The notes under the pieces: model-generated
Database searches by the model: none
The model's input: only the letters and a program-made list of their open reading frames with translations
What the model was told of the DNA's origin: nothing
Translations under genes and position numbers: made by a program
Shown here: positions 11,207 through 25,784 of the stretch, piece after piece
How positions within the stretch are numbered: position 1 is the stretch's first letter
Layout of the letters: each line of letters starts with the position of its first letter
IMG/VR virus record: IMGVR_UViG_3300043103_000132
Span: 1-39,985 of that record
DNA: 39,985 nt
Direction: 5' to 3' (one strand)
Origin: a virus
Taxonomy: Duplodnaviria > Caudoviricetes

Positions 11207-12724
11207 CTAGGAAATGGTTACAACAGCGCCGCTGTCGTACTGGCTAATACGGATAACTACGAATTCAGCAGGACGCTGCAGAGCAACTCCCACCTCGACC
11301 ACTACGTTTCCATTGTCAATCTGGTTGGTAGTGTTGTTTTCCTCGTCACACTTGACGTAGAACGCATCTGCCGGGGTTAGACCACGGAGACCGCCCTGTT
11401 GCCAGAAGTCGGTGAGGAAAGTTTCTACGGTGGAAGTTAGTCGGTTCCATAGGCGCTCGTCGTTTGGCTCGAAGATTGCAAAACCAGTTAGCTCTTCCAA
11501 GCTCTTCTTGACGAAGATCAGGCTGCGACGAACCGATACATAACGGTCTGCGTATCCTGGCTTTAGGGTGCGAGCACCCATAACCACGATTCCAGAACCA
11601 GGAACGTAACGGATTGCGTTTACAGGAGCCGAAGCGCTGTTTAGAGCGTCAAGGTCAGAGTTGGTTAGCTGTGCTACCGAAACAACTCCAGAAAGACGAG
11701 CCTCTAGACCAGCAGGAGACTTGAAGACTCCTCGCGAAGCGTCAGTCGCAACGTAGCGGCCCATAACAGCAGCTCCGTTTGAAACGGTAGTGATTGCGTT
11801 TGGTGCGCTGCTTGTCGGGTCTGGAACTACCAAGTTAGGGTAGTACACAGCTGCGTACGAGCTGCTGGTGTAAGCAGCGGCACGAGTAAGCTGAGCCGAG
11901 ACAGTGTCGTTAAGCGCATCAATTACTACAAACACGTCGCCACGACCTGTTGCGTAAGTGATGATACCGTTTACTTCAGTAGCGGCTGTAACACCCGGTA
12001 CGTTCAGGATTAGGCTCTGAGTAACAGTATCAAGCGCAGTCAAGGCAGAGACAAGGTTGGCGTCTGTAGGAGCAGTACCGTCTGCGCCAGTAGATAGCTC
12101 TACAGGAACGCTTCCGCCAGATCCGGTAGGAGCTGGGTTGTCGCTTGCTGTGTGGCTGTCGCTAGGGCTAGAGTCAGCTACGGTGATGTACGCAGAGCTT
12201 CCATTAATAACTGAAATAGCGTAGCGTGGGTCGCTATTTAGCATAGTAATGTCGGTGAAGCGTTCAACTGCGGTGCCCGAAGTAGCCGCGCTACCGTAGT
12301 AGACAGTCAAATCAAAGTAACCTGTGATAGCCGAGTTAGCGATACCAACGTAAATATCGTTACCCCAAGCACCAGCGTTAAGCGCAGTTACAGCTAGGGT
12401 CGCGGCTGGGGTGGTGTTGGTGTCGTTAAAAGTACTTGTAGCAGATACAGGGGTACCAGCAGTAACACGCTTAACGTAGCAGCGGCTTCCGCCGTTTGCA
12501 AAGAACATGTATACAGCTGTGACTAGCTTGTTACGGCTAGCAGTCGTGCTCCACGAGCCGTATAGGCTTGTGAACTGTGACCATGAGGTCACTAGAGTTG
12601 TGGCCACTGGGCCCTTGTCAGCGGAGCCTACGAAGGCGGCGACTGAGTCAGAGTTAGGACCGATGATAGGTGGGTTTGGATTGAGGGTTTCCTCAATGTA
12701 CACACCGGGACGTAGGTACGCCAT
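11207..12724 (-). CDS. Contractile tail sheath protein
   Basis: YLRPGVYIEE, FFANGG, RGVFKSPAG, GARTL, RYVSVRR, FEPND, PAEFVVIRI. Confidence 0.96.
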   Translation of the reverse strand: MAYLRPGVYIEETLNPNPPIIGPNSDSVAAFVGSADKGPVATTLVTSWSQFTSLYGSWSTTASRNKLVTAVYMFFANGGSRCYVKRVTAGTPVSATSTFNDTNTTPAATLAVTALNAGAWGNDIYVGIANSAITGYFDLTVYYGSAATSGTAVERFTDITMLNSDPRYAISVINGSSAYITVADSSPSDSHTASDNPAPTGSGGSVPVELSTGADGTAPTDANLVSALTALDTVTQSLILNVPGVTAATEVNGIITYATGRGDVFVVIDALNDTVSAQLTRAAAYTSSSYAAVYYPNLVVPDPTSSAPNAITTVSNGAAVMGRYVATDASRGVFKSPAGLEARLSGVVSVAQLTNSDLDALNSASAPVNAIRYVPGSGIVVMGARTLKPGYADRYVSVRRSLIFVKKSLEELTGFAIFEPNDERLWNRLTSTVETFLTDFWQQGGLRGLTPADAFYVKCDEENNTTNQIDNGNVVVEVGVALQRPAEFVVIRISQYDSGAVVTIS

Positions 12725-13974: not shown

Positions 13975-14184
13975 TTACTGCCGTCCGGCATGAAACTCAG
14001 AGTTCCGTTTAGTGTAGTTTCCTACGTACTCTGCAGACTTGACATTGTTGTCCCAAGACATCTTTGGCCAGGCCTTAGTAGACTCGGTAGTCTTATCGCC
14101 CAGCTTGCCGTACGTATCGTTTTTACGACTAGCCTCGGCGTGGCGCTTGGCGGTAAGTCTGACTGCCTTTGGGGTGTTAGGCAT
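13975..14184 (-). CDS. Small basic protein
   Basis: TAATG-coupled; Lys/Arg-rich. Confidence 0.65.
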   Translation of the reverse strand: MPNTPKAVRLTAKRHAEASRKNDTYGKLGDKTTESTKAWPKMSWDNNVKSAEYVGNYTKRNSEFHAGRQ

Positions 14185-14480
14185 TACTTGCGTCCAGGCT
14201 TCTTTTCCATCTTGTCCTCACGCTTTTCGCCGCGCTTGGTCTCCTTGGACTCGTGCTTCTTCTCGCCGGCCTTAATCTTGCCGATGATCTTAGCGTCGAT
14301 CTTCTTATCCTCGGCCATGGTCTTAGGCTTGCCCTTGGCAGCGTGAGCCTTGTCCATCTTCTCGAACTTGGCCTTGTCCTCCTTGTCAGTTAGACCGGCT
14401 TTGCGGAGCATTGCTGCGTCCTTTGGCTTGTCTTTCTTCTCGGTGTACTTGCCTTTTTCGTATGCTGGCTTCTTATTCAT
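14184..14480 (-). CDS. Small highly charged Lys-rich protein
   Basis: AGGA RBS; K/E/D-dominated sequence. Confidence 0.75.
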   Translation of the reverse strand: MNKKPAYEKGKYTEKKDKPKDAAMLRKAGLTDKEDKAKFEKMDKAHAAKGKPKTMAEDKKIDAKIIGKIKAGEKKHESKETKRGEKREDKMEKKPGRK

Positions 14481-14489
14481 TTACTTTCC

Positions 14490-14789
14490 TTACGCTGGGA
14501 TAACTAGTGAGAATAGAACAGAGACGTCATAACCAGAACCGGTACCGGCGGCTGAAACTGCGTATAGCGAGTCCCCACCGTTTAGCCAGATGTCCTGGTT
14601 TGTAAGCGTAGCGATCCTAAGACCGCGGTCTATTGTACCCGCTGCAGCTACTGAAGAGTCTCCGATAAATACCGAAGCGCCATTTGAGTTGCTAACAACT
14701 ACGTGAGTCAGTGGGTTGCCCATAGGGACAGTCGCAATAAGTACTGGGGTGTTTGCAGCTAAAACAAAGCTGTTGTGTACAATGGCCAT
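14490..14789 (-). CDS. Small beta-sandwich virion protein
   Basis: VVVSNSNGASVFIG...GLRI...LNGGDSLYAV strand pattern; AAGGAG RBS. Confidence 0.65.
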   Translation of the reverse strand: MAIVHNSFVLAANTPVLIATVPMGNPLTHVVVSNSNGASVFIGDSSVAAAGTIDRGLRIATLTNQDIWLNGGDSLYAVSAAGTGSGYDVSVLFSLVIPA

Positions 14790-14842
14790 TAGTTAGGCTC
14801 CTTCTTTCCGCAACCGCAGTTGCCGCACTTGCAGTCTTTCAT
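14789..14842 (-). CDS. 17-aa Cys-rich micropeptide MKDCKCGNCGCGKKEPN
   Basis: Fills the gap exactly, with TAATG overlaps at both ends. Confidence 0.65.
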   Translation of the reverse strand: MKDCKCGNCGCGKKEPN

Positions 14843-15066
14843 TACTTACTTCTTTTCTTCGCAGTGGCGGCTGCCTTGTTGCGCGTCTTTGGTGATGCCA
14901 TAGCGAGGATCTCGCCTGGAGCTTTAATTGTACCACCCTTGGCTACAGAACCTTTAGACAAAGCCTCTCGGGCTTTGCGGTCTACTGGGTTGTTTGGAGC
15001 ATACTTTGGCTCAGCGTTTGACTTCTTATTGATTGAGCTCTTGGAGCCCTTTGGTGCTAGACCCAT
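14842..15066 (-). CDS. Small basic protein
   Basis: TAATG-coupled; Lys-rich. Confidence 0.7.
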   Translation of the reverse strand: MGLAPKGSKSSINKKSNAEPKYAPNNPVDRKAREALSKGSVAKGGTIKAPGEILAMASPKTRNKAAATAKKRSK

Positions 15067-15383
15067 TACTTGGTGCCTTTCTTCTTGTTTTCGAGACGCT
15101 TAGACATGGCAGCTGCCTTCTTCTTAGCGTCAGCTTTGGATGATGCTCCCCACGCCTGTAGCGATAGCAGTAGGCGGGTGGGGTCTCCGTTTGGCTTACG
15201 TTCTGGGCCGGGGTTACCGCCCATTCGAGCTAGGAACGAAGCGCGGCGAGGGTTGTCGCCGGACTTTACTGGGGCTTTTAGGTCAGAGCCAGGGTTAGCC
15301 TTTTCATAAGACTTACGGCCCTTTTCGTTCAGGCCGCCTTTCTTAGCTTTGCCTTCTTTTTTCTGCCAAGCTTCACTTGCCAT
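15066..15383 (-). CDS. Basic phage protein (DUF6321-like)
   Basis: AWQKKEGK..KGGLNEKGRKSY...RRASFLARM motif; start moved to MASEAW. Confidence 0.75.
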   Translation of the reverse strand: MASEAWQKKEGKAKKGGLNEKGRKSYEKANPGSDLKAPVKSGDNPRRASFLARMGGNPGPERKPNGDPTRLLLSLQAWGASSKADAKKKAAAMSKRLENKKKGTK

Positions 15384-15609
15384 TTCGTTTACCTTTTCCA
15401 ATCTCTGGGTGCTTCTTGTGGTAGTCCTTGGTATCCTTGACACCCTGCTTAACGGTCTTAGCTCCCGATAGCTTGGTGAGGTTCATACGTTCTTTTTTAC
15501 CAGTCTTGCTGCTCTGCTCAACAATAATGTCGCCTTTATTTCCAGCACCCTTGTCGACCTTCTTTTGGGTGACTTTGTGGTTTAAACCCCCGGCGGTTAC
15601 TTTAGCCAT
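15373..15609 (-). CDS. Small basic protein
   Basis: TAATG-coupled; Lys-rich. Confidence 0.7.
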   Translation of the reverse strand: MAKVTAGGLNHKVTQKKVDKGAGNKGDIIVEQSSKTGKKERMNLTKLSGAKTVKQGVKDTKDYHKKHPEIGKGKRNGK

Positions 15610-15776
15610 TACTTGCCCTTTTTCTTTTTAGCCGCATTCATGTTGTCTACGAGGTTAGGGTAAGGCCTACCAGCGGCCTTAGCCTTGGCTTTCGCAGAGG
15701 ACTTCTGGCTTTTGCTAAGCGGCTTATCTTTTTTAGTAGGGTCTGGTTTTTCCCAAACAGGTTTCTTGTCAGCCAT
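15609..15776 (-). CDS. Small basic protein (GRPYPNLVDNM motif)
   Basis: AGGAG RBS before MADKKPVWEK; start moved to 15776. Confidence 0.75.
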   Translation of the reverse strand: MADKKPVWEKPDPTKKDKPLSKSQKSSAKAKAKAAGRPYPNLVDNMNAAKKKKGK

Positions 15777-15783
15777 TTTTCTC

Positions 15784-16317
15784 CTATGATTGTGCGTAAC
15801 TGAGGAACTGTACATCGTTTACCAGCTCATCCGGAGCTAGCTGCATCAGGTCAATAACAATTAGGGTGTGGCGATTAGCCACTAGACCGGCTGGCTGTGT
15901 CTTGATAGGGCGGTAAACCTGACCCTTCCACACGACGCGGTACTTGTTTGCAAGGTCGATAGACGGCTTAATCTTAGAGCGATCAGAGAATAGCTCTGAG
16001 CTGATATCGTACATGTCATCGATGTTGACAGTAAGGTGAAGGGTGTCTGTGTTGTAGAAACCACGGGTGTTTAGAGGGCTAGATCCCTCAGTAACTGAGG
16101 AACGAATAACACGTAGAGTGCTAGGCCCTGTCCATACTCGGCCGGTTCCGATAGGCTCTACATCGTACACCGCGTCTACAAGGCTGCTGACTGAGTTAAA
16201 TTTCCACCATTCAGCTGAGTTACCTGCGGGATTGGCTAAATCCTCAGTGATGCCTTCACTGATACGATCGGACTCAAAGTCCGCGTCAAATCTACCGCCA
16301 GGTGTATGTGCTCTCAT
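15784..16317 (-). CDS. Putative head closure/neck protein
   Basis: DAVYDV...GRVW, GFYNTDTLHLT, RVVWKGQVY beta pattern; position. Confidence 0.55.
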   Translation of the reverse strand: MRAHTPGGRFDADFESDRISEGITEDLANPAGNSAEWWKFNSVSSLVDAVYDVEPIGTGRVWTGPSTLRVIRSSVTEGSSPLNTRGFYNTDTLHLTVNIDDMYDISSELFSDRSKIKPSIDLANKYRVVWKGQVYRPIKTQPAGLVANRHTLIVIDLMQLAPDELVNDVQFLSYAQS

Positions 16318-16433: not shown

Positions 16434-17189
16434 CTACCTGCTACCAGGTAAGTCTTTATTTAACTGACTTAGGTCAAGACGCTTATTATTAGTCTGAAAA
16501 GTGGAAGCGCTCCCATCAAGTCTGATGCCGCTATAAATATTTGGTTTTAGTGTATAAGAAATGATCTTTTCAGTCTGCTTAGACCAGAACCAATCTAAGG
16601 GTAGATCGATACCTTCTTTAACTATATCTAGCAGCTTCTGGGCCGATCTCCTATTAATCACATAGCATAAGTTTGACCACTCCTGGTATACCCTACAAAC
16701 ATTCGGCGCTCCGACATCTAATTTTTTTGAGTACCACCCTGCGTCTTGATCGTGCACAAAGTGATGGTACATATCCCAGTCATCTGGCAACTCTGCCATG
16801 TAAGAAACTAACGTCGGCATAAAGTCCGGGTTAAAGATAGCATCATCTTCCATCAAAATCAGGTAGTCAGAGTCTGTATCTAGAAAAGCCTTCCAGGCCA
16901 GGAAGTTGCTAGCCCATATCCCAACCTCCCCTAGCTTCCACCCCTTAAGCGTAGGCAGCGTCCGTAATAATAAGTTTCTAGTAAGGTCTTTCGGGTTATA
17001 TCCAGAGAAATCTAACGCAAAATCTAAGTTAGACTTACAAAAATCATTAATGCCTACAACTGATTCAAAATCAACTGTAGGTGAGTTTATAAGCTCAGCA
17101 AACTCCAGCATATATTCGTGCATAGCCTGAACATTCGCGTCTCTGTAGTCATCTTTTGATAGATGAAACATATTGTAAGAGTACTTCAT
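16434..17189 (-). CDS. Glycosyltransferase family 25-like
   Basis: GEVGIWASNFLAWKAF...LILMEDDA...LPDDWD...CYVINRRSAQKLL...PLDW matches the GT25 motif order. Confidence 0.85.
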   Translation of the reverse strand: MKYSYNMFHLSKDDYRDANVQAMHEYMLEFAELINSPTVDFESVVGINDFCKSNLDFALDFSGYNPKDLTRNLLLRTLPTLKGWKLGEVGIWASNFLAWKAFLDTDSDYLILMEDDAIFNPDFMPTLVSYMAELPDDWDMYHHFVHDQDAGWYSKKLDVGAPNVCRVYQEWSNLCYVINRRSAQKLLDIVKEGIDLPLDWFWSKQTEKIISYTLKPNIYSGIRLDGSASTFQTNNKRLDLSQLNKDLPGSR

Positions 17190-17515
17190 TATATGTACTC
17201 GACGCCTACCCCGATGAACTGGTACGTTAGCTCTTCATTAGGAAATCTTGGGTACCCGCTGGGCATGAGAAAGACCTGTGGGTCACGTGACTTAAGGAGA
17301 TTCATAAGTCGCTTTATGCTAACCTCTGCTACCTTCCACTTTGGATCAAGCGAAGGCAAGTCAACCTCATCAGAAATTATGCAGACAATAGCTTGCTCAG
17401 GAGTATTGTGTATCGCATCGACAAACCCGCCGGCTGCTCTGATTATGTCAAAAATCTCTACCGGCGCTTCTTTTTGCCCCGGCTCGTAATAAGGAGTCCA
17501 TTCCATATATCTCAC
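17189..17515 (-). CDS. Hypothetical protein (partner of the propeller cassette)
   Basis: GAGG RBS; coupled on both sides. Confidence 0.6.
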   Translation of the reverse strand: MRYMEWTPYYEPGQKEAPVEIFDIIRAAGGFVDAIHNTPEQAIVCIISDEVDLPSLDPKWKVAEVSIKRLMNLLKSRDPQVFLMPSGYPRFPNEELTYQFIGVGVEYI

Positions 17516-18060
17516 TGGTCTGTCACCTCTGGCGCTTGAGCTGGGTCTTCCTCTATGAACTTAACCCCAATTTGACGTAGAGCATCCAGAGACGCCCAGC
17601 CGACGTGGCCTCCACTGCCCATGGCCTCTAAGTGGGCCTGGCGGTTTAAGCGCGTGTGCCAGTACACAGGCTGGTCTGCCTCTATGTCCTCATAGGTGTA
17701 CTTAGTCTCAAAGGACTCCCAGATAGCTACGATGTCTTGGATCTCACGGCGCATTCCGAGTAGCGATAGCTTTTGCTGGTCTAGCTGTATGCGGTGGATT
17801 TCAGCATCAATAGCATCTATTTCATCGCCGGTTTTTAACAGTCTTTTTATCTGGATCTCGGATTTCTTTATCTCAAGCTCTGTAATCCTTATGTTTGTAA
17901 CTAAAACTGAGAACTCTAACAAGGTCTGCTTATATTGCTGAACTTCGGTGTCATGTTGGCCGACTACAAAGTTTTGTAACTGAAATTGACTCCTAGGCTT
18001 TTGAATTTCTACTAGGGCCTTAAAGATAGGGTGCGTTTCATCAATTACTTTTAGTTCCAT
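17512..18060 (-). CDS. Coiled-coil hypothetical protein
   Basis: AAGGAG RBS; RSQFQLQNFVVGQH...QYKQ followed by a long heptad stretch. Confidence 0.7.
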   Translation of the reverse strand: MELKVIDETHPIFKALVEIQKPRSQFQLQNFVVGQHDTEVQQYKQTLLEFSVLVTNIRITELEIKKSEIQIKRLLKTGDEIDAIDAEIHRIQLDQQKLSLLGMRREIQDIVAIWESFETKYTYEDIEADQPVYWHTRLNRQAHLEAMGSGGHVGWASLDALRQIGVKFIEEDPAQAPEVTDQ

Positions 18061-18069
18061 TTTTGCTCC

Positions 18070-19035
18070 TTAGTAGGTGTTCCAGGTATTTACGCCAGTT
18101 CTGTTAACAGTAGCGGTCGCTACGTTAGATACCGTTTCGTTAGAGTAAGTTAACTTACTTACCGTAGTTAAGACAGGCGCTGCCGAACCTCCAGTGCTTC
18201 TACCGCTGGCGTAGTAAGCAGACACTCCGGCTTGCACCCCCACTCTGGCGGGGGCTCGGGCCGCTGATAATGTTGCCGATAAAGTAGAGTAGCTGGTATC
18301 ACTGGCAAAAGATATCTTAAGTATATTAGTTGGAAATGTCTGATAGGGCATTGAGTTACCGCCAGCAAGATATGCTCCAGTAGAGCCGTTTTCAGCTCCT
18401 GATGTGTTTGCCCTGGAGGTGGCTGTGGCATCTGCCCACACACTGCTCGCTGTGCTACTAGAAGTGTTAAATTTAACTAACCCCCCGTAGTAATATGGGC
18501 CGGCTGGGGTACCTCCCCCAAAGTAAATTGAAGGGCTATTGCTAAAGGTGTAGTTTCCAAAAGGGCCTATATTACTAAAACTTTGTAGGGCAGTAGATGT
18601 CGTAATAGTATCGGTTGAAAAATTCCAAGCGTTTACTATAGCACCGGACATGGCGGTCGTTGGGTTAGTGACATAGTAAGCGGCAGCGGGGGTAAACCCG
18701 CCCCTATAAGTACCTGCTAGCTGGGACGGAGTACCTAAAGTAGAAATAGTTTCCGTACCTAGGTTAAATTTATTTATAGCAGAGCCGCCTAGAAGGGCAT
18801 AGCCATTTATGTTGGAACTAAACGCTGTGCTGAGGGTGAACGCAGAGAACGTTAAGGTAGCGGATAACGTAGAAAAAGTCTCTGTGTTAAACGGCATCTT
18901 ATTTATTGCCGTTGAGCTTCCTTCACCTGGGGTAAACATCGAAGGATTAAGGGGTAAGTACCCCAAGTTTCCTACGAGCATGGAGCGGTAATCCCATTTT
19001 TCCTTAATTCCGCTTCTAGTCATAGATCTATTCAA
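18070..19035 (-). CDS. Beta-propeller-like (kelch-like repeat) putative receptor-binding tip
   Basis: About six repeats of Y/F-x-x-GG...I-x-K-x-x-F-S-T-D/E-T-x-S-T-L; probable TTG start at 19035, 10 nt after AGGAG. Confidence 0.65.
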   Translation of the reverse strand: MNRSMTRSGIKEKWDYRSMLVGNLGYLPLNPSMFTPGEGSSTAINKMPFNTETFSTLSATLTFSAFTLSTAFSSNINGYALLGGSAINKFNLGTETISTLGTPSQLAGTYRGGFTPAAAYYVTNPTTAMSGAIVNAWNFSTDTITTSTALQSFSNIGPFGNYTFSNSPSIYFGGGTPAGPYYYGGLVKFNTSSSTASSVWADATATSRANTSGAENGSTGAYLAGGNSMPYQTFPTNILKISFASDTSYSTLSATLSAARAPARVGVQAGVSAYYASGRSTGGSAAPVLTTVSKLTYSNETVSNVATATVNRTGVNTWNTY

Positions 19036-19315
19036 TTGGGACATACTCCTCGAGCTGCTCGTCAAAGATGTGGGGCTCCCCGCCTTCTGGTGGGTACTGC
19101 CCAGGCTCTATAAACCGGTCTAGCTCTTCGTCATAGGTGTAGCCAACTCCGGCAAATACCCCGCGGAAGTTGTTGTTATAAGAGGTCTTAACCCAGCGAC
19201 CGCCTAAATTTTCCATGATCCATCTGTAGCCTTCATCGCCATTAGGGTCATTGTTGTCCCCCACAATAACCCTAATTACTACATTGTCTTCATTAAGTTC
19301 AGCCCAGTGAGCCAT
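19028..19315 (-). CDS. Small acidic fibre-assembly/chaperone-like protein
   Basis: MAHWAELNEDNVVIRVIV...WVKTSYNNNFRGVFAGVGYTYDEELDRFI; follows the Gly-rich tip. Confidence 0.7.
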   Translation of the reverse strand: MAHWAELNEDNVVIRVIVGDNNDPNGDEGYRWIMENLGGRWVKTSYNNNFRGVFAGVGYTYDEELDRFIEPGQYPPEGGEPHIFDEQLEEYVPIE

Positions 19316-20388
19316 TACCCACCAACCGATGCTTTTGTATAACGGAAGATTACTATTCCAGAACCGCCGTTACCGACAGTGCCGCCCACGCTCTGTGCAG
19401 TAGTACTACTAGTAGCGTAGTAACCACCGCCGCCGCCTCCGCCGCCCGTATTCGCAGCCCCGGTAGTCGGGCCGGTGGGAGTAGCGCCCACCGATGCTTG
19501 CCCAAGTCCTGTACCCCCGCCGCCGTTGCCGCCGGCTGCGGCTCCAGCCCCCGCGTAGTAAATCCCGCCGCTTTGATAAAGACCCATGCCGCCGCCGCCG
19601 CCGCCGCCGATCCAGTAAGTTCCAGAAACATTTTGGCCCGCCGAGCAAGCTTGAAGCCACGACGAGTATGCAGAAGTGCCATTGCCGCCGCCACCGCCGG
19701 GAGATGCGGTGTTAGTAGTAGTCGTGCTTCCATTAGCACCGTTGTTACCGTTACCGGCACCACCGCCGCCACCGCCGTTACGGGACCCGTTATAAATAGC
19801 AGATCCTCCAGTACCTCCGGCACCGGCAGCTCCTGCGACAGTTGCGCCGCTACCACCTCCGCCGCCACCGCCGTTTGATGTAGGGGCCTGTGTAACAACC
19901 CCTGGGCAGCACACGCTACCGCTCCACCCGCCAAAGCCTCCTACAAGACCTTGAGTTCCACCGCCGCTGGTTGGGGTTACAGTAGACGCTGTTGCATCAA
20001 GCATGTAACCATTACTGGTGTTTTGCGCTCCACCAGCAGCTACTACTACTGAAAAACTGCCTGTGGCAAACACGGCGTTTGTCCAAACGCTAACTATTCC
20101 GGCACCGCCACCGCCACCGCCTTGGTGGGCAGCTGTATAGCTTCTTCCACCGCCGCCTCCGCCACCCACGAGCATCACATCCGCAGTAAGGGAGGCGTTT
20201 GCTGGGTAACCACCAGAAACAACTAAGCTACCGCTGGCTCTGAAAGCGCGGTAGTAATAGGTTGCGTCAGAATAAAGGGTGCCGCCTGTGACCGTAGGGT
20301 AAGGAAAATTTGGGCTATTTTCCGCAAGTGCGCTGCTGTATTTTTTAAAGGTGGAAACCCCAGAGCGCTTAAGAGATTGAATTGCCAT
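19315..20388 (-). CDS. Glycine-rich (polyglycine-II type) putative receptor-binding tip
   Basis: LVGGGGGGG, GGGGGAG, ANTGGGGGG, GNGGSGIVIFRY motifs. Confidence 0.8.
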   Translation of the reverse strand: MAIQSLKRSGVSTFKKYSSALAENSPNFPYPTVTGGTLYSDATYYYRAFRASGSLVVSGGYPANASLTADVMLVGGGGGGGRSYTAAHQGGGGGGAGIVSVWTNAVFATGSFSVVVAAGGAQNTSNGYMLDATASTVTPTSGGGTQGLVGGFGGWSGSVCCPGVVTQAPTSNGGGGGGGSGATVAGAAGAGGTGGSAIYNGSRNGGGGGGAGNGNNGANGSTTTTNTASPGGGGGNGTSAYSSWLQACSAGQNVSGTYWIGGGGGGGMGLYQSGGIYYAGAGAAAGGNGGGGTGLGQASVGATPTGPTTGAANTGGGGGGGGYYATSSTTAQSVGGTVGNGGSGIVIFRYTKASVGG

Positions 20389-20399
20389 GCGGCCGCTCC

Positions 20400-20729
20400 T
20401 TAGCTAATTTCGGACCCGAACAGGTTAAAGCTTAAGTTAGCGGTAGATGCGTAGACAGTAACTACGTCAGTTGCGGCCAGTGTGATACCCAGAGTCAATG
20501 TGGTGGAATCTGATAGGCCGACAGTAATGTCGTAAGCAATGTAGTGCTGGTTGGCTAGCGTTGCGCCGGATGGTCTAATTGCAATACGGTATGTCGCTGC
20601 GCTTGTAGTACGGTTGGCGATCACAATAGTGGAAATTACTGCATTCTTACCGGCACCTACGGTGTAGATGTCAGTTGCAGTAGTGGCTGATGGTGCCGAT
20701 TGTGCGAGAACCTTGTAAACGGTAGGCAT
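20400..20729 (-). CDS. Small beta-sandwich fibre adaptor
   Basis: IYTVGAGKNAVISTIVIAN...FNLFGSEIS; paralogue of 34604..34933. Confidence 0.7.
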   Translation of the reverse strand: MPTVYKVLAQSAPSATTATDIYTVGAGKNAVISTIVIANRTTSAATYRIAIRPSGATLANQHYIAYDITVGLSDSTTLTLGITLAATDVVTVYASTANLSFNLFGSEIS

Positions 20730-20759
20730 GTCTTATCTCCTATAGATATATATATTATA

Positions 20760-20993
20760 TTATGCGCCCATTAGTAAGAATGGATCAAGTCCGCCAGCGC
20801 TAGGCGTAGTCCAAGTAGGGCTTGTACCGGTACCTGAAGATGTAAGCACCTGACCCGCTGTACCATTACTTCCGACAGGAAGAGTTATGGGCGAGTTTGA
20901 GCCGCTAAATGTGATGCCTCCGCTAAATGTAGCTGCACCAGAATGACTAGAAGTGCTTTCTAGGGTTACTGAGGTTTTAAATACTCTTGCCAT
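20760..20993 (-). CDS. Short fibre linker protein
   Basis: GTAGQVLTSSG..SPTW fibre motif; ends PFLLMGA. Confidence 0.7.
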   Translation of the reverse strand: MARVFKTSVTLESTSSHSGAATFSGGITFSGSNSPITLPVGSNGTAGQVLTSSGTGTSPTWTTPSAGGLDPFLLMGA

Positions 20994-21002
20994 AGCTTAA
21001 GC

Positions 21003-22691
21003 CTAGCCTACAATAACGTACTGGAATCCAGTCAAGGTCTGTGAAGAAGCAAATGTAAATGTCGTAGTTCCGCTGTTGGTAGACGCATTTAGCACATCCA
21101 CTTCAACCAAGTTACCGCTAGTGTCAAAGATCTGGGCAGTAACCCACTGACCAAGGCCGTGGTTCACAACCATTGCTGTACCAGTACCAATACCGACGCC
21201 GGCTACGCGGCGAGCAGAGGTGATTGTTCCAGAAGCGGCTGTAGCTGTAGCTGTAGAAGTAGTGGTGCCTAGCGCGGTAAACGGAACAGACGTGTAAGTC
21301 ACACCAGTTACGCGACCGTAGGTGTCAACCGTGATGTCGTCTACGATAGTAGAAGAGCTTGCCGAGCCAGAGTTGCTTGCTGTAACAGTTGCAAGGTTAA
21401 CGGCATCGGCGGTTACGGTTAGCGTGGTAGAGGCAATGTCTAGCTGGTTAGGGTTAGTTCCATTAGTAACAAGACCGGCACCAGCAAGGGTGGCAGAGGA
21501 TCCAGAGAACTGTGACCAAGTAACAGCTGAGGTACCGATAGTAGTAACGATAGCGGTCTCTACGAATCCGTTACCGCCGTTTGATGTACCTGCAAGAACG
21601 TATACCAGGTCACCGGCTTCAAGCTCCGGAACCTGGTCGTTGTCAGTTGCACGAGTAAATACAAACGAAGTGGTGTTTCCAACCTCACCGACAGAGGTTA
21701 CAGTGTAAATACCGTTCTGAAGTGCAGACGCCTGGTTTTTAATTAGAACGCGGTCAGTAACAGTTAGAGACTGGCCGTCAATTGTGATAGCAGTCCAGTT
21801 TGAGGATGTTCCGATGGTAAGCGTTGCACCCTGGCCGCTAGACCCATTTGCATAGGTAGTCGTGATAGTACCGCCAACAAGGTTGCCAGTGGTGCCCAGT
21901 GCGCCAGTGGTGGCGTAGTTAACGGCATCGTGTGAGTTAAGGCCCTGGGATACGTTATCAACGTACGATTTAGTAGCGGCATCGTCTCCTGCGGTAGGAG
22001 TTCCAAGACCGGTGATCTTGCTTCCACCCATAGCGATAGCACCAGACATAGTGCCACCTGCCTTTGGAAGGGCGGCATTAGCTAGGTCGTAGGCAGACTT
22101 AACGCTGTTTGGGGTAGCGGCAGTCGTAGTGCTGGTAGACGAAGTAGAGTCAGTTAGGGAGACAATACCTGCAGTCGAGGTAGAGCCAGTAGCAACGCTT
22201 AGTGTACGGGCTGTGCCACCTGTGTAGGTAGTGCCAGCATCGTAAGAAAGTCCGGTTCCTAGGCTAAGAGCGCCTAGGGTGCTACCCAGAGAAACGCCAG
22301 AAATAGTTGAGTTAGTAAGGCCAGCGTTAGGGATTGTGGCTACAGACCCTAGAACACCGCTGCCGTTATTGGTCACATAACCAGCAGTGGTAAGCGGCGT
22401 AGTAATGGTGCCGCTAAACGTAGGCCCTGAAAGGGTAAGACCTGCAATTGTGGTAACTGTGTCACCTAGGGCTACAGAGGTGCTACCAAGTGTGAAAGAC
22501 CCAGCGCCTGAAGATATAGTCTTCCAGCCAGTGTTGTCACGGTACTTAAGGACGTGCAGGGTGGAGTCATACTGGATACGGCCAGTACCTGACGTGATGG
22601 AGTTGATAGACGTAGTCGATAGGTTACCTACCGCAGCGTCTTGAAGTTCAAGACCATTCAGGTTTATTGGGGTATAAAAATTACGAGCCAT
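21003..22691 (-). CDS. Ser/Thr/Gly-rich fibre protein
   Basis: GIVSLTDSTSSTSTTTAATPNSVK, GGTMSGAI, DAATKSYVD, DRVLIKNQ...QNGIY, ITVDTYGRVT fibre motifs. Confidence 0.85.
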   Translation of the reverse strand: MARNFYTPINLNGLELQDAAVGNLSTTSINSITSGTGRIQYDSTLHVLKYRDNTGWKTISSGAGSFTLGSTSVALGDTVTTIAGLTLSGPTFSGTITTPLTTAGYVTNNGSGVLGSVATIPNAGLTNSTISGVSLGSTLGALSLGTGLSYDAGTTYTGGTARTLSVATGSTSTAGIVSLTDSTSSTSTTTAATPNSVKSAYDLANAALPKAGGTMSGAIAMGGSKITGLGTPTAGDDAATKSYVDNVSQGLNSHDAVNYATTGALGTTGNLVGGTITTTYANGSSGQGATLTIGTSSNWTAITIDGQSLTVTDRVLIKNQASALQNGIYTVTSVGEVGNTTSFVFTRATDNDQVPELEAGDLVYVLAGTSNGGNGFVETAIVTTIGTSAVTWSQFSGSSATLAGAGLVTNGTNPNQLDIASTTLTVTADAVNLATVTASNSGSASSSTIVDDITVDTYGRVTGVTYTSVPFTALGTTTSTATATAASGTITSARRVAGVGIGTGTAMVVNHGLGQWVTAQIFDTSGNLVEVDVLNASTNSGTTTFTFASSQTLTGFQYVIVG

Positions 22692-22699
22692 TTACTTTC

Positions 22700-23095
22700 C
22701 TAAGATAGATACGCAAATCCGGTTGTGCCGAAGCCAAAGTCGATAGTTAGAGTAGTAGCGCTCGTGTAGTTCACTGTGCCCTCCATGCTGAAACCAGCGG
22801 AGTCTGTGGTAGTGACGTTAGGTTTGAAACTCAGATTGTGTGTAATGCTCCAAGTAGAGGATACCGCATTTTGCGTGTGGGTGTATGCGATAGTGGGCGT
22901 AGTTCCAGCAGGTCCTTGAGGTCCAGTAGCACCAGTAGCACCAGTAGCACCAGTAGCGCCAGCAGGACCAGTTTCTCCTGGAGGGCCTGGCTGGCCCTCA
23001 AGTACTGATATTTGAGGTGGGGGTGTTGTCGGCGTTACCGCCGGAGTTACTGTTACTGTGACAGACGGAGAGGGCGTTACTATTACGTCTACCAT
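22700..23095 (-). CDS. Collagen-repeat fibre protein with C-terminal 'THNL' domain
   Basis: About 10 Gly-X-Y triplets, then YTHTQ..SSTWSITHNL; start moved to MVDVIV at 23095 (TAATG). Confidence 0.8.
   Translation of the reverse strand: MVDVIVTPSPSVTVTVTPAVTPTTPPPQISVLEGQPGPPGETGPAGATGATGATGATGPQGPAGTTPTIAYTHTQNAVSSTWSITHNLSFKPNVTTTDSAGFSMEGTVNYTSATTLTIDFGFGTTGFAYLS
22923..22958. repeat. 9-bp tandem repeat (CCAGTAGCA) x4 encoding collagen GAT triplets
   Basis: Seen directly; last copy imperfect. Confidence 0.85.
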
Positions 23096-24159
23096 TAAGC
23101 TGTCGTCACCTCTCGGTTTACAAACACCTGACCGCGTAGGTAAGTGCGTGTAAAGGTAGGATCTGACAGAGAAGTTGCTTGGATATCCCAGGCGCATCGT
23201 ACAGGAAGAATATCAGTCTGCTCTTTAGTAAGCGACACGGTCAGCTTCTTTAGAGTCGAGCTATTTACAGCAATACCCATAGTTGCCCACAACGTAGGCG
23301 ATCCTGGGTAAGTACGGATCTGAGCCTTGAATACCAAGTCATTAAAGTTAGTGTCGTCTGGGAAGTCTAGAGTTACAGAGAAGTTGTCGCCCTCTTCAAT
23401 AACCAAGTCGTAGATTCCAACGGTAGTAGGAAGCGGCCCACGACCAGTAAGGTCGTTCTGCAAATAGACTCTCTCCGGCTTTCTGCCGTCATCAATTTCC
23501 TGAGCCATGTAAACAGGTACAAGCTTGTTCGTTGTCCTGCTCACGCGGCGTAGAACGCCCATTTCGATACGCCAGAGGCCGATGTTAAGGGCAGAACAAA
23601 TGTTGCGGTATTGTTCCTGGCGCTGGGCAATAAGTCCCATGAGCTGGCTGTAGCGCTGCGCTCGCGGGATTGTAACGCCATCCGGTGCTTGGATGTCGAT
23701 ATCGAAAGAAGCGTCTGTTGCCAGAGCGTATAGGGCCTCTATGGTAGATAAGATCGTTATTGGATAGACCTCGACCTCTGGCAACATGCTAATGTTCATC
23801 TGTCGACCGAAACCGTCTGTGCGGTTATAGGTGTGCTGGGTCACAGCAGTATTAACAAAATACTCAATTTCGGCATCAGAGAAGTATCGGTAAACGCTAC
23901 CAACTACCTTAAGGATAACGTTAGACGCAGGGGCAGTAACGGTATGAACAACACCAATACTCGCCTCAACTGTGTAGGTTGTTGGGTTGGTAAGGGTTGT
24001 GCTACCTGAAGTAACTAGAAGAGTGTTAGCATCAATCGGCTTAACGCCGAGATTAAAGTCTTTAGTTGCGCCGTCCCCCGTGAACGACTTAGTGAACTGA
24101 CGAGGCTGGTCGTTCAGTTCAGTTCTTACCTTAGCCACTAGGTCTAAGAGAGTTGCCAT
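23095..24159 (-). CDS. Head-tail adaptor with extra Ig-like domains
   Basis: LVAKVRTELND, YFSDAEI, C-terminal YDLVIEEGDNF...KAQIR...WDIQ...TYLRG (BppU-N-like); second gene after capsid. Confidence 0.7.
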   Translation of the reverse strand: MATLLDLVAKVRTELNDQPRQFTKSFTGDGATKDFNLGVKPIDANTLLVTSGSTTLTNPTTYTVEASIGVVHTVTAPASNVILKVVGSVYRYFSDAEIEYFVNTAVTQHTYNRTDGFGRQMNISMLPEVEVYPITILSTIEALYALATDASFDIDIQAPDGVTIPRAQRYSQLMGLIAQRQEQYRNICSALNIGLWRIEMGVLRRVSRTTNKLVPVYMAQEIDDGRKPERVYLQNDLTGRGPLPTTVGIYDLVIEEGDNFSVTLDFPDDTNFNDLVFKAQIRTYPGSPTLWATMGIAVNSSTLKKLTVSLTKEQTDILPVRCAWDIQATSLSDPTFTRTYLRGQVFVNREVTTA

Positions 24160-24716: not shown

Positions 24717-25784
24717 CTAGTTGGTTTCTGCAATCACAACAGCCTGGTCAGTGATTAGACCAAGACCGAAGATTGAGTACCAAGCGAGGGCGTGCTCACG
24801 ACCGAAGTCAAGAATACCGCCGTCACGAAGCTCTACTGGAAGAGAGATCGCGTGACCGAATGCGTTGTCACCAATGAAGATGGCGTCGTAGCGGTCAGAC
24901 GAACCGTTACCGGTAAAGTCGTTTGGAGTGATGTAACCTCCACCAGGAGTTACTGTGTAAGCAGCAGCTGTGTCGGTGGTGTAGTTGGTACCTGCACCGT
25001 TAGGTGTACGGCGAACCTGAGTGGTCTCGATGAATACGGTGTCGTATAGACGGCCGATCTCACCTAGCATGAAGTTACCAGGTGCAGCGTACTTGGTTAC
25101 TTCGATGAACTCTGGGTTGTCGCGTAGACGACGGCTCTGGTGTGGGTGAACGAACGCAACGTAAGTCTCACCTAGTCGTGGGATGTTCTTGGTCGAGAGT
25201 GTCTCAACTGCATCCTTGACGGTGCGAGGGCTTAGGTAGTTCTGACCGGTCATCGAAGCACGGCTTGTACCGTTAACTCCGTAAGCGTACCAGTTGTTTA
25301 CACCAGCAAGACCTGAACGGTCCTCACCGTAGATTGTAGAAGTCGCGCTGTATAGAGTGTCGCGTGACAACTTGTCTAGGTAAAGAGCCATGTTACGGCC
25401 TAGAAGACGCGAAGCTGAAGCCATTACGTCATCGAACGAAGCGTTTAGAAGAAGCTCTGATACAGCAAGTGCGTATCCGTGCTCTGAAACGGTGATCGAG
25501 AACTGCTGTGCAGTCAGTGCGTTGGTCTGCATACGTACACCTTCAACGAGCGGTGAAGCTGCTCCGAGGTTGTTGTAACGCAGGAAGTTAATCTGAAGAC
25601 CAGGTGCAACACCTAGTTCTGTCTTCTTAACTGCGAACTGCTCAAAGCGAAGGATCGGCATAGCCTGGAAAAGGATTTCCTTTGACCAGATCTGCTGAAT
25701 CGCCTGAGTTAGCTGGGTGTTTGTACCCGAGTATGAGGTTGGGGCTGCGGCTAGATTGCCGGTACCCGTAATACCTGATGCCAT
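24717..25784 (-). CDS. Major capsid protein (N4 gp56-like)
   Basis: LRFEQFA, LVEGV, YVAFVHP, GEIGRLYDTVFIET, DFGREHALAWY; strong codon bias; follows scaffold. Confidence 0.92.
   Translation of the reverse strand: MASGITGTGNLAAAPTSYSGTNTQLTQAIQQIWSKEILFQAMPILRFEQFAVKKTELGVAPGLQINFLRYNNLGAASPLVEGVRMQTNALTAQQFSITVSEHGYALAVSELLLNASFDDVMASASRLLGRNMALYLDKLSRDTLYSATSTIYGEDRSGLAGVNNWYAYGVNGTSRASMTGQNYLSPRTVKDAVETLSTKNIPRLGETYVAFVHPHQSRRLRDNPEFIEVTKYAAPGNFMLGEIGRLYDTVFIETTQVRRTPNGAGTNYTTDTAAAYTVTPGGGYITPNDFTGNGSSDRYDAIFIGDNAFGHAISLPVELRDGGILDFGREHALAWYSIFGLGLITDQAVVIAETN

Follow-up and report, generated by a model that had tools for sequence, protein, structure and literature searches.

A putative serial connector system for a multi-protein appendage in an uncultured myovirus-like phage

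Docking domains of phage fibres and the organization of the locus

Several phages join separately encoded fibre proteins through a small docking domain and a terminal segment of the partner. In the Klebsiella podophages KP32 and K11, a fibre domain binds a short, conserved peptide at the N-terminus of the protein that the next gene encodes; for KP32, deleting either the branching domain or the peptide blocks incorporation, and the modules are swappable (PMC13352976). The XD2/XD3 domains of CBA120 TSP4 and T4 gp10 are β-jellyrolls of ~60 amino acids (aa), the trimer face of which binds another trimeric fibre (PMC8825819). In TP901-1/Tuc2009, the C-terminal β-sandwich of BppU joins the N-terminal stem of the trimeric receptor-binding protein (RBP) BppL (PMC4742702), and p132 of T5 anchors the side fibres (PMC10038345). 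Here we describe a fibre gene cluster in IMG/VR record IMGVR_UViG_3300043103_000132, a stretch of 39,985 nucleotides (nt) referred to as the window. Located on the minus strand, with the capsid gene on one side and the tail genes on the other, the cluster probably encodes a single virion appendage whose segments join head-to-tail in gene order via matched terminal connectors.

From the sequence comparisons and models, the chain would run from an adaptor through a collagen stalk (segment A), a shaft (segment B), a linker and a small adaptor to the tips (Table 1). At joint 0, the p132/LtfC-like domain of the head-tail adaptor would hold the N-terminal strand of segment A. At joint 1, a trimer of the C-terminal socket domain THNL-A, located above the collagen stalk, would bind the plug at the N-terminus of the 562-aa shaft, itself a trimer, placing Glu105 near Arg3; at joint 2, the paralogous socket THNL-B would bind the shorter plug of the 77-aa linker. 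The hydrophobic FLLMGA end of the linker would then bind a 109-aa sandwich protein (joint 3), which would in turn bind one or both tips by their conserved N-terminus (joint 4). Everything beyond joint 2 would constitute an exchangeable host-contact module. Separately made pieces likely join in gene order, since the matched end tags recur together across many bacterial groups. The socket is probably, judging from its model, a small XD2/BppU-Ct-like β-sandwich that is used serially rather than for branching.

Gene order also equals physical order in the long tail fibre of T-even phages, which consists of several polypeptides (gp34-gp35-gp36-gp37(-gp38)); long tail fibres of T2/T6/S16-type phages end in a Gly-rich adhesin. 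To our knowledge, each T-even joint is unique and lineage-specific, with no portable socket family reused between joints.

Joint 1 of the window resembles the KP32 system in that a docking domain co-occurs with a conserved N-terminal peptide of a downstream fibre. KP32 has a single branch point, at which a second RBP joins, with the docking domain lying internally beside the enzymatic RBP1, whereas THNL sockets occupy the extreme C-terminus (108 of 109 complete THNL-A domains in the GTDB scan below), are used twice in series and are followed by other joint types. Domain searches found no enzymatic domain in segments A or B. The XD domains, unlike THNL, lie at the N-terminus or internally and form branches on a baseplate anchor (PMC8825819). 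BppU differs in that a loop enters the cup of RBP N-termini, at a single baseplate joint and within a larger domain (PMC4742702). Structural alignment of the THNL-A model gave Z 5.1 with TSP4 residues 188-249 (root-mean-square deviation (rmsd) 2.1, 54 residues), below the level that parts relatives from common sandwiches, and Z 5.2 with BppU-Ct (rmsd 1.7, 52 residues); XD domains were absent from the PDB profile search results for THNL, with no sequence match. The Ig-like p132 of T5, or LtfC of DT57C, anchors the side-fibre N-terminus and matches the C-terminal domain of the window's adaptor, but p132 is a free-standing dodecamer at the tail tip whereas the window domain is fused to a head-tail adaptor (PMC10038345). 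The first-pass annotation of the window stated that no description of such a connector code was known; this does not hold for the principle of a β-sandwich receiving an N-terminal peptide, given the experiments on KP32 (PMC13352976) and on CBA120 and T4 gp10 (PMC8825819). The docking principle is thus known, and what was not found in print is the THNL socket family and its serial use: a search of open-access papers, supplements excluded, returned no account of this family or of the related PDB entry 9NX3, and the available portions of PMC7150772 and PMC12908700 held nothing bearing on the subject.

THNL sockets, plugs and the natural exchange at joint 2

The adjacency of THNL-A and plug 1 is near-obligate in both directions and across phyla. 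Among 80 IMG/VR loci fetched by THNL-A, which are close relatives and not dereplicated, an M[AS]RxF-type gene came next in 79 of the 79 with downstream sequence. A DNA-pattern scan of GTDB genomes yielded a further 121 pattern-ascertained loci from many phyla. A true THNL-A domain was present in 111 of these 121 matches, carried, by eye, on unrelated and varied N-terminal bodies, and 75 of 93 distinct followers carried the plug (above the 99th percentile of 500 controls). The reverse test drew on 119 metagenome loci; after removal of 11 duplicates and five short ones, and with 10 internal or other matches (one with THNL) set apart, THNL-A lay directly upstream of 90 of the 93 genes that begin with the plug. 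The succession of THNL-A and a MARxF gene is recovered from either side. In cultured phages, the same order of segment A and a plug-bearing segment B was found across five host phyla (RcMaeve, T12, YS40_Isch, E3 and Mvi-JY20), with Rhodobacter, Streptococcus, Thermus, Rhodococcus and Microcystis as hosts. Followers of THNL-A range from 220 to 1190 aa, and 118 of the 129 complete ones end in THNL-B. The A-then-B order is fixed, with 142 AB cases; the rare BB and ABB arrangements consisted of one misclassified A and one interrupted gene.

The C-terminal domains of 22700..23095 and 21003..22691, for which a resemblance had been noted, are homologous according to profiles built from related loci (hhalign P=96.8%, and 97.7% with E=2e-12 in a second comparison). 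A type-B profile made without the window detected 21003-22691 at E=3e-6 and ranked 22700-23095 second among 649 window open reading frames (ORFs). Pairwise BLAST detected neither this likeness nor any other of the resemblances claimed. The THNL-A profile matches 18,201 protein clusters (50% identity), yet the domain has no confident Pfam match (weak ones only, best E=8e-4); 7 of 82 members match PF18667 weakly. No convincing sequence match in the PDB came from queries with THNL-A, the plug, the adaptor, tip 1 or the sandwich, and the ESM Atlas returned unnamed viral clusters only and contained no model of either the sandwich or the adaptor. AlphaFold2 (AF2) models THNL-A as a confident all-β domain (predicted local distance difference test (pLDDT) 97.6), the nearest solved folds including LME-1 orf22 N, BppU-Ct, TSP4 XD2 and T7-gp17-N-like domains at Z 5-6; the predicted fold is compatible with a docking role. 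No natural fusion of THNL and plug was found among the best 150 profile matches, a sample biased to repeats. Large proteins with 2-12 tandem THNL-like domains also occur (P0001-P0030) and may be multi-socket scaffolds or plain spacers.

The THNL-B profile matches residues 184-242 of PDB 9NX3 at E=1e-10. This entry covers the last 237 aa of a gp232-like (Alice) protein from a cluster C1 mycobacteriophage and holds one sequence in six chains, with no partner. Like segment B, Alice gp232 ends in THNL-B, but its start is not plug 1. The gp233-235 proteins encoded after it (L585:9026-11969) have a common MATLKYVG-like start, which could represent three alternative plugs for one socket.

Covariation provides a residue-level hint at joint 1. 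In 126 socket-plug pairs, retained from 246 after 70% dereplication, the top inter-protein pair by mutual information was socket column 36 with plug residue 3 (z=10.1, against at most 6.2 in 30 shuffles). In the window, these positions are Glu105 in segment A and Arg3 in segment B. A plug Arg or Lys accompanies an acidic socket in 42 of 46 pairs, compared with 5 of 80 for other sockets, and disjoint nearest-neighbour contrasts were concordant in 10 cases, discordant in none and tied in six. This pattern is suggestive of a residue contact, not proof of one, because the column was picked from the same scan and the signal is partly one of plug length.

At joint 2, a 10-position position-specific scoring matrix (PSSM) trained only on THNL-A followers placed 40 of 41 distinct THNL-B followers of this phage group above the 99th percentile set by 843 control N-termini from the window's phage group; MARVFKTSVTL of the window outscored all 843. 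The shared start peptide after both THNL domains, as first proposed, thus holds within this phage group and is weak in distant prophages, as detailed below. The notion that segments can be swapped is supported by a natural exchange at this joint. A relative with 87% nt identity (L002) matches the window through the adaptor, segment A and segment B down to position 20986, and the match resumes from 16455; between these points lies a different module, again starting MART. The boundary at ~20986 falls in the first codons of the 77-aa linker gene. In another relative (L277), an HNH-like insertion after THNL-B ends in a duplicate of the last ~20 residues of the socket, and a sandwich-like gene comes next.

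The adaptor, the small sandwich and the tips

The window is a 40-kb myovirus-like contig of a lake-type phage, in which genes for terminase, portal, capsid, sheath, T4-gp19-type tube and baseplate are all present; its close relatives are uncultured IMG/VR contigs, and in the cultured collection only Streptomyces phages of BRock type matched the 354-aa adaptor. All ORFs and motifs quoted in the first-pass annotation were found at their coordinates on the minus strand. Its assignment of the first gene as a neck adaptor agrees with the AF2 model (pLDDT 72), which comprises a helical core (residues ~1-203), an inserted XD2/T7-gp17-N-like β-sandwich (residues 18-91) and a C-terminal β-sandwich of the LtfC/p132 type, a known fibre-anchor fold (residues 245-352). 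Structure alignment gave Z 9.9 with a GP4 portal-tail chain, 9.3 with a T4 gp13/gp14 entry, 9.9 with 7qg9 and 9.8 for the insert. The chains aligned to residues 1-203 were 8jov_2 (Z 9.9), 9lu4_D (9.3) and 8vb4_M (9.0); helical folds easily reach middling scores. In the model, the core resembles head-tail adaptors of the GP4, T4 gp13 and PhiM1 class, and the gene's position fits a neck class, with the capsid gene upstream (24717-25784) and the sheath gene downstream (11207-12724). The C-terminal domain is an Ig-like sandwich homologous to p132 (PF23926 LtfC, 28.7 bits, above cut-off; Foldseek match to 7qg9, E=7e-8).

In 37 of 50 loci, the first gene after the adaptor encodes a protein with THNL-A at its end; most of the others begin, by eye, with an [IV][IV]xxP-type strand. 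In one Streptomyces phage genome, that of LuckySocke, the LtfC tail is missing from the adaptor and no such cluster directly follows. The LtfC/p132-like domain is, on the model, likely the fibre anchor, and attachment of the appendage at the neck of this phage is likely because the adaptor model, the role of T5 p132, the co-occurrence with the follower and the LuckySocke contrast agree. In distant loci, a narrow profile found an LtfC-like gene upstream of segment A in 3 of 68; by eye, and in RcMaeve and Mvi-JY20, such a gene looks as if it may be commoner. The adaptor insert (23887-24108) is an FTGDG-type sandwich of the THNL fold class and a possible second attachment site.

At joint 3, the 109-aa protein was used to fetch 80 loci; most genes upstream of the sandwich gene in them end in an FLLMGA-like tag, with unrelated N-termini. 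When loci were instead ascertained by the tag alone (120 FLLMGA-stop matches, less 11 duplicates and one short), the sandwich gene came next in 97 of 108 distinct matches, behind upstream bodies falling into 33 clusters, as anticipated from the window alone. The sandwich itself has no confident Pfam and no PDB sequence match, with partial matches to PHROG 1276/11338/693. In one locus (L014), two inserted genes part a gene with an FLLMGA-type tag from its sandwich gene, and adjacency is not strict. In THNL-lacking relatives (L037, L041-L045), the hydrophobic tails VALAGL and YIGVLA precede genes for divergent ~100-aa sandwich-like proteins, which suggests that tag and adaptor subtypes co-vary. 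Other relatives carry a different joint at this point, in which an xQxRR start comes after a DGG-type tail (33 of 50, against 33 of 3294).

At joint 4, a tip-N profile matched 69 of the 87 loci that have the sandwich, against 4 of 258 other loci, a comparison that is partly circular as the profile was trained on such loci. Both tips had been said to share an N-terminus. Tip 1 does carry it, scoring 32.5 bits on the profile from other loci (with PF21722 at E=6e-5, just below cut-off), whereas tip 2 is marginal, with 8.5 bits (second among the 243 candidate N-termini of the window) and without the usual MA[VI] start. In L066, the gene preceding a homologue of 17512-18060 comes directly after the sandwich gene and has a canonical tip start. 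Homologues of the MAHWAEL companion occur in 39 loci, mostly after tip genes.

In segment A, plug 0 is β-rich and the collagen repeat covers residues 34-65. In segment B, residues 170-211 form a fibre repeat (PF03406), residues 144-398 are a domain common to LME-1 orf22, and the match to PDB 9EFK has E=1e-20. The fibre proteins contain 21-35% Ser+Thr, a GT25 glycosyltransferase gene (16434-17189) ends the swapped fibre block, and three glycosyltransferase genes lie upstream of gp232 in mycobacteriophage Alice; the fibre proteins may be glycosylated. Small, very Lys-rich ORFs (14184-15815) lie between a head-closure-like gene (15784-16317) and the tail genes, and similar ones are found in relatives.

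Table 1. Coordinates of the fibre cluster in the window and the evidence for each feature
Feature	Position	Strand	Evidence
Probable 354-aa head-tail (neck) adaptor with likely fibre-anchor domain	23095..24159	(-)	PF23926 LtfC, AF2 model, Foldseek
Segment A, 131 aa: plug 0 (MVDVIVTP), collagen repeat, THNL-A socket	22700..23095	(-)	PF01391
Putative THNL-A socket, 62-aa β-sandwich	22703..22888	(-)	AF2 model, profile matches, covariation
Segment B, 562-aa Ser/Thr-rich fibre shaft: plug 1 N-terminal, THNL-B C-terminal	21003..22691	(-)	PF03406, 9EFK, PHROG
Putative plug 1 (MARNFYTPINLNGLELQD...), N-terminus of segment B	22617..22691	(-)	THNL-A directly upstream of 90/93 plug-starting genes
Putative THNL-B socket, THNL-A paralogue	21006..21188	(-)	hhalign P=97.7%; PDB 9NX3 profile match
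77-aa linker: plug 2 (MARVFKTSVTL) N-terminal, FLLMGA tag (20763-20780) C-terminal	20760..20993	(-)	
109-aa highly conserved small protein, likely β-sandwich adaptor between FLLMGA tag and tip	20400..20729	(-)	
Tip 1, glycine-rich domain protein, conserved tip N-terminus (MAIQSLKRSG...KY)	19315..20388	(-)	
MAHWAEL small companion of Gly-rich tips	19028..19315	(-)	PHROG 7759
Tip 2, degenerate tip N-terminus; start uncertain (19065 TTG, 19044 or 19023 ATG)	18070..19044	(-)	
Three trailing genes: 182 aa (PHROG 1409), 108 aa, GT25 glycosyltransferase	16434..18060	(-)	inside block swapped with tips

Alternative readings and implications for phage appendages

Several observations weigh against a serial chain. 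Foldseek returned no match for the THNL-A model at E<=0.001, and its top fold match was a neuraminidase domain at a middling Z of 6.8. Joint 2 is weak in distant prophages, where only 3-6 of 54 GTDB followers of THNL-B pass the 99th percentile (a loose plug motif follows in 19 of 54, against 31 of 250), and AR9, Sundance and Mvi-JY20 have THNL-B without a plug-like follower. The pooled charge pair equivalent to that of joint 1 did appear at joint 2 (17 of 29 against 11 of 49, p=0.0015); covariation there is nevertheless not supported by neighbour contrasts, which were concordant once, discordant twice and tied eight times. THNL-like domains also form internal tandem arrays, being terminal in just 71 of the best 150 matches, a ranking that favours repeats. 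Such arrays, together with the lack of a plug follower in three of eight cultured loci, could fit linked cassettes whose proteins attach to the virion independently, for example with segment B as a capsid decoration fibre held by its own N-terminus and THNL as a terminal trimerisation or sugar-binding cap. The title of 9NX3, 'capsid decoration protein', for a chain that ends in THNL-B, and the 'head decoration' label of PHROG 2647 on segment B (which also receives the 'tail fiber' label of PHROG 8745) point the same way. Mere linkage leaves unexplained, however, why conservation is confined to the facing termini and both bodies vary, as well as the reverse adjacency and the acid-base covariation with its 10:0 contrasts, and independent attachment is an unlikely account.

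Somewhat less improbable, though still well behind a serial chain at the neck, is an assembly in which the joints are real but branched or mixed, with A and B cross-reacting, B self-chaining or tips alternating, or one located on the head or tail. The two sockets, A and B, are homologous, plugs 1 and 2 have ~10 residues in common, a plug-1-type gene directly follows THNL-B in one locus (L297), and the adaptor carries a second sandwich of the same fold class; in Pontimonas phage phiPsal1, the FLLMGA tag, the sandwich and an MGHWAK companion gene are found in the tail cluster. The fixed A-then-B order and the co-occurrence of the adaptor's LtfC tail with the cluster argue against this reading. 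The three orthogonal connector pairs of the first-pass annotation are not borne out for joints 1 and 2, as the sockets are homologous, the plug is shared and L297 breaks the pairing; serial order would probably come from the unequal plug lengths and from the other joint types at 0, 3 and 4. For joint 3, the conservation of FLLMGA might be a by-product of a Shine-Dalgarno site or of translational coupling for the next gene instead of a binding tag. In 31 of 40 cases its Gly is encoded by GGA, which can also serve as a ribosome-binding site, and gaps to the next start are often of 0-5 nt; the codon use again counts against the chain. Yet Gly-Ala is kept in the remaining 9 of 40, which use GGC or GGT and, the window included, mostly have a separate purine-rich site in the gap, and the F-L-L codons vary synonymously. 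Shine-Dalgarno pairing was thus rejected as the sole cause; as an explanation for the tag, it is very improbable, and it has no bearing on the 62-aa THNL joints.

For a serial, neck-attached chain as first sketched, the adjacencies, the covariation at joint 1, the natural swap and the adaptor model are favourable; orthogonality and the lack of any precedent, as first worded, are not supported. A broader possibility, which we hold only tentatively and consider doubtful as it stands, is a general assembly code of tailed phages, readable from genomes, in which a few portable connector pairs string segments in gene order at neck, head or tail. These pairs would comprise LtfC/plug 0, THNL/MARxF, FLLMGA/sandwich, sandwich/tip peptide and DGG/xQxRR. 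Segment B, which bears both a plug and, at its opposite end, a homologous socket, may then self-chain into fibres that vary in length. Modular synthases, with their docking domains, offer an analogy.

On the sequence comparisons assembled here, the terminal-connector pattern is a real and widespread genomic grammar with one hint of contact at the residue level. If the joints are real, the architecture of such appendages would be readable from terminal motifs alone in thousands of uncultured phages and prophages, and a family of more than eighteen thousand clusters that lacks a confident Pfam match would gain a function. Proteins labelled 'hypothetical' or 'head decoration' would become recognisable as chain segments. 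Such joints would also account for the exchange of host-contact tips at defined boundaries.

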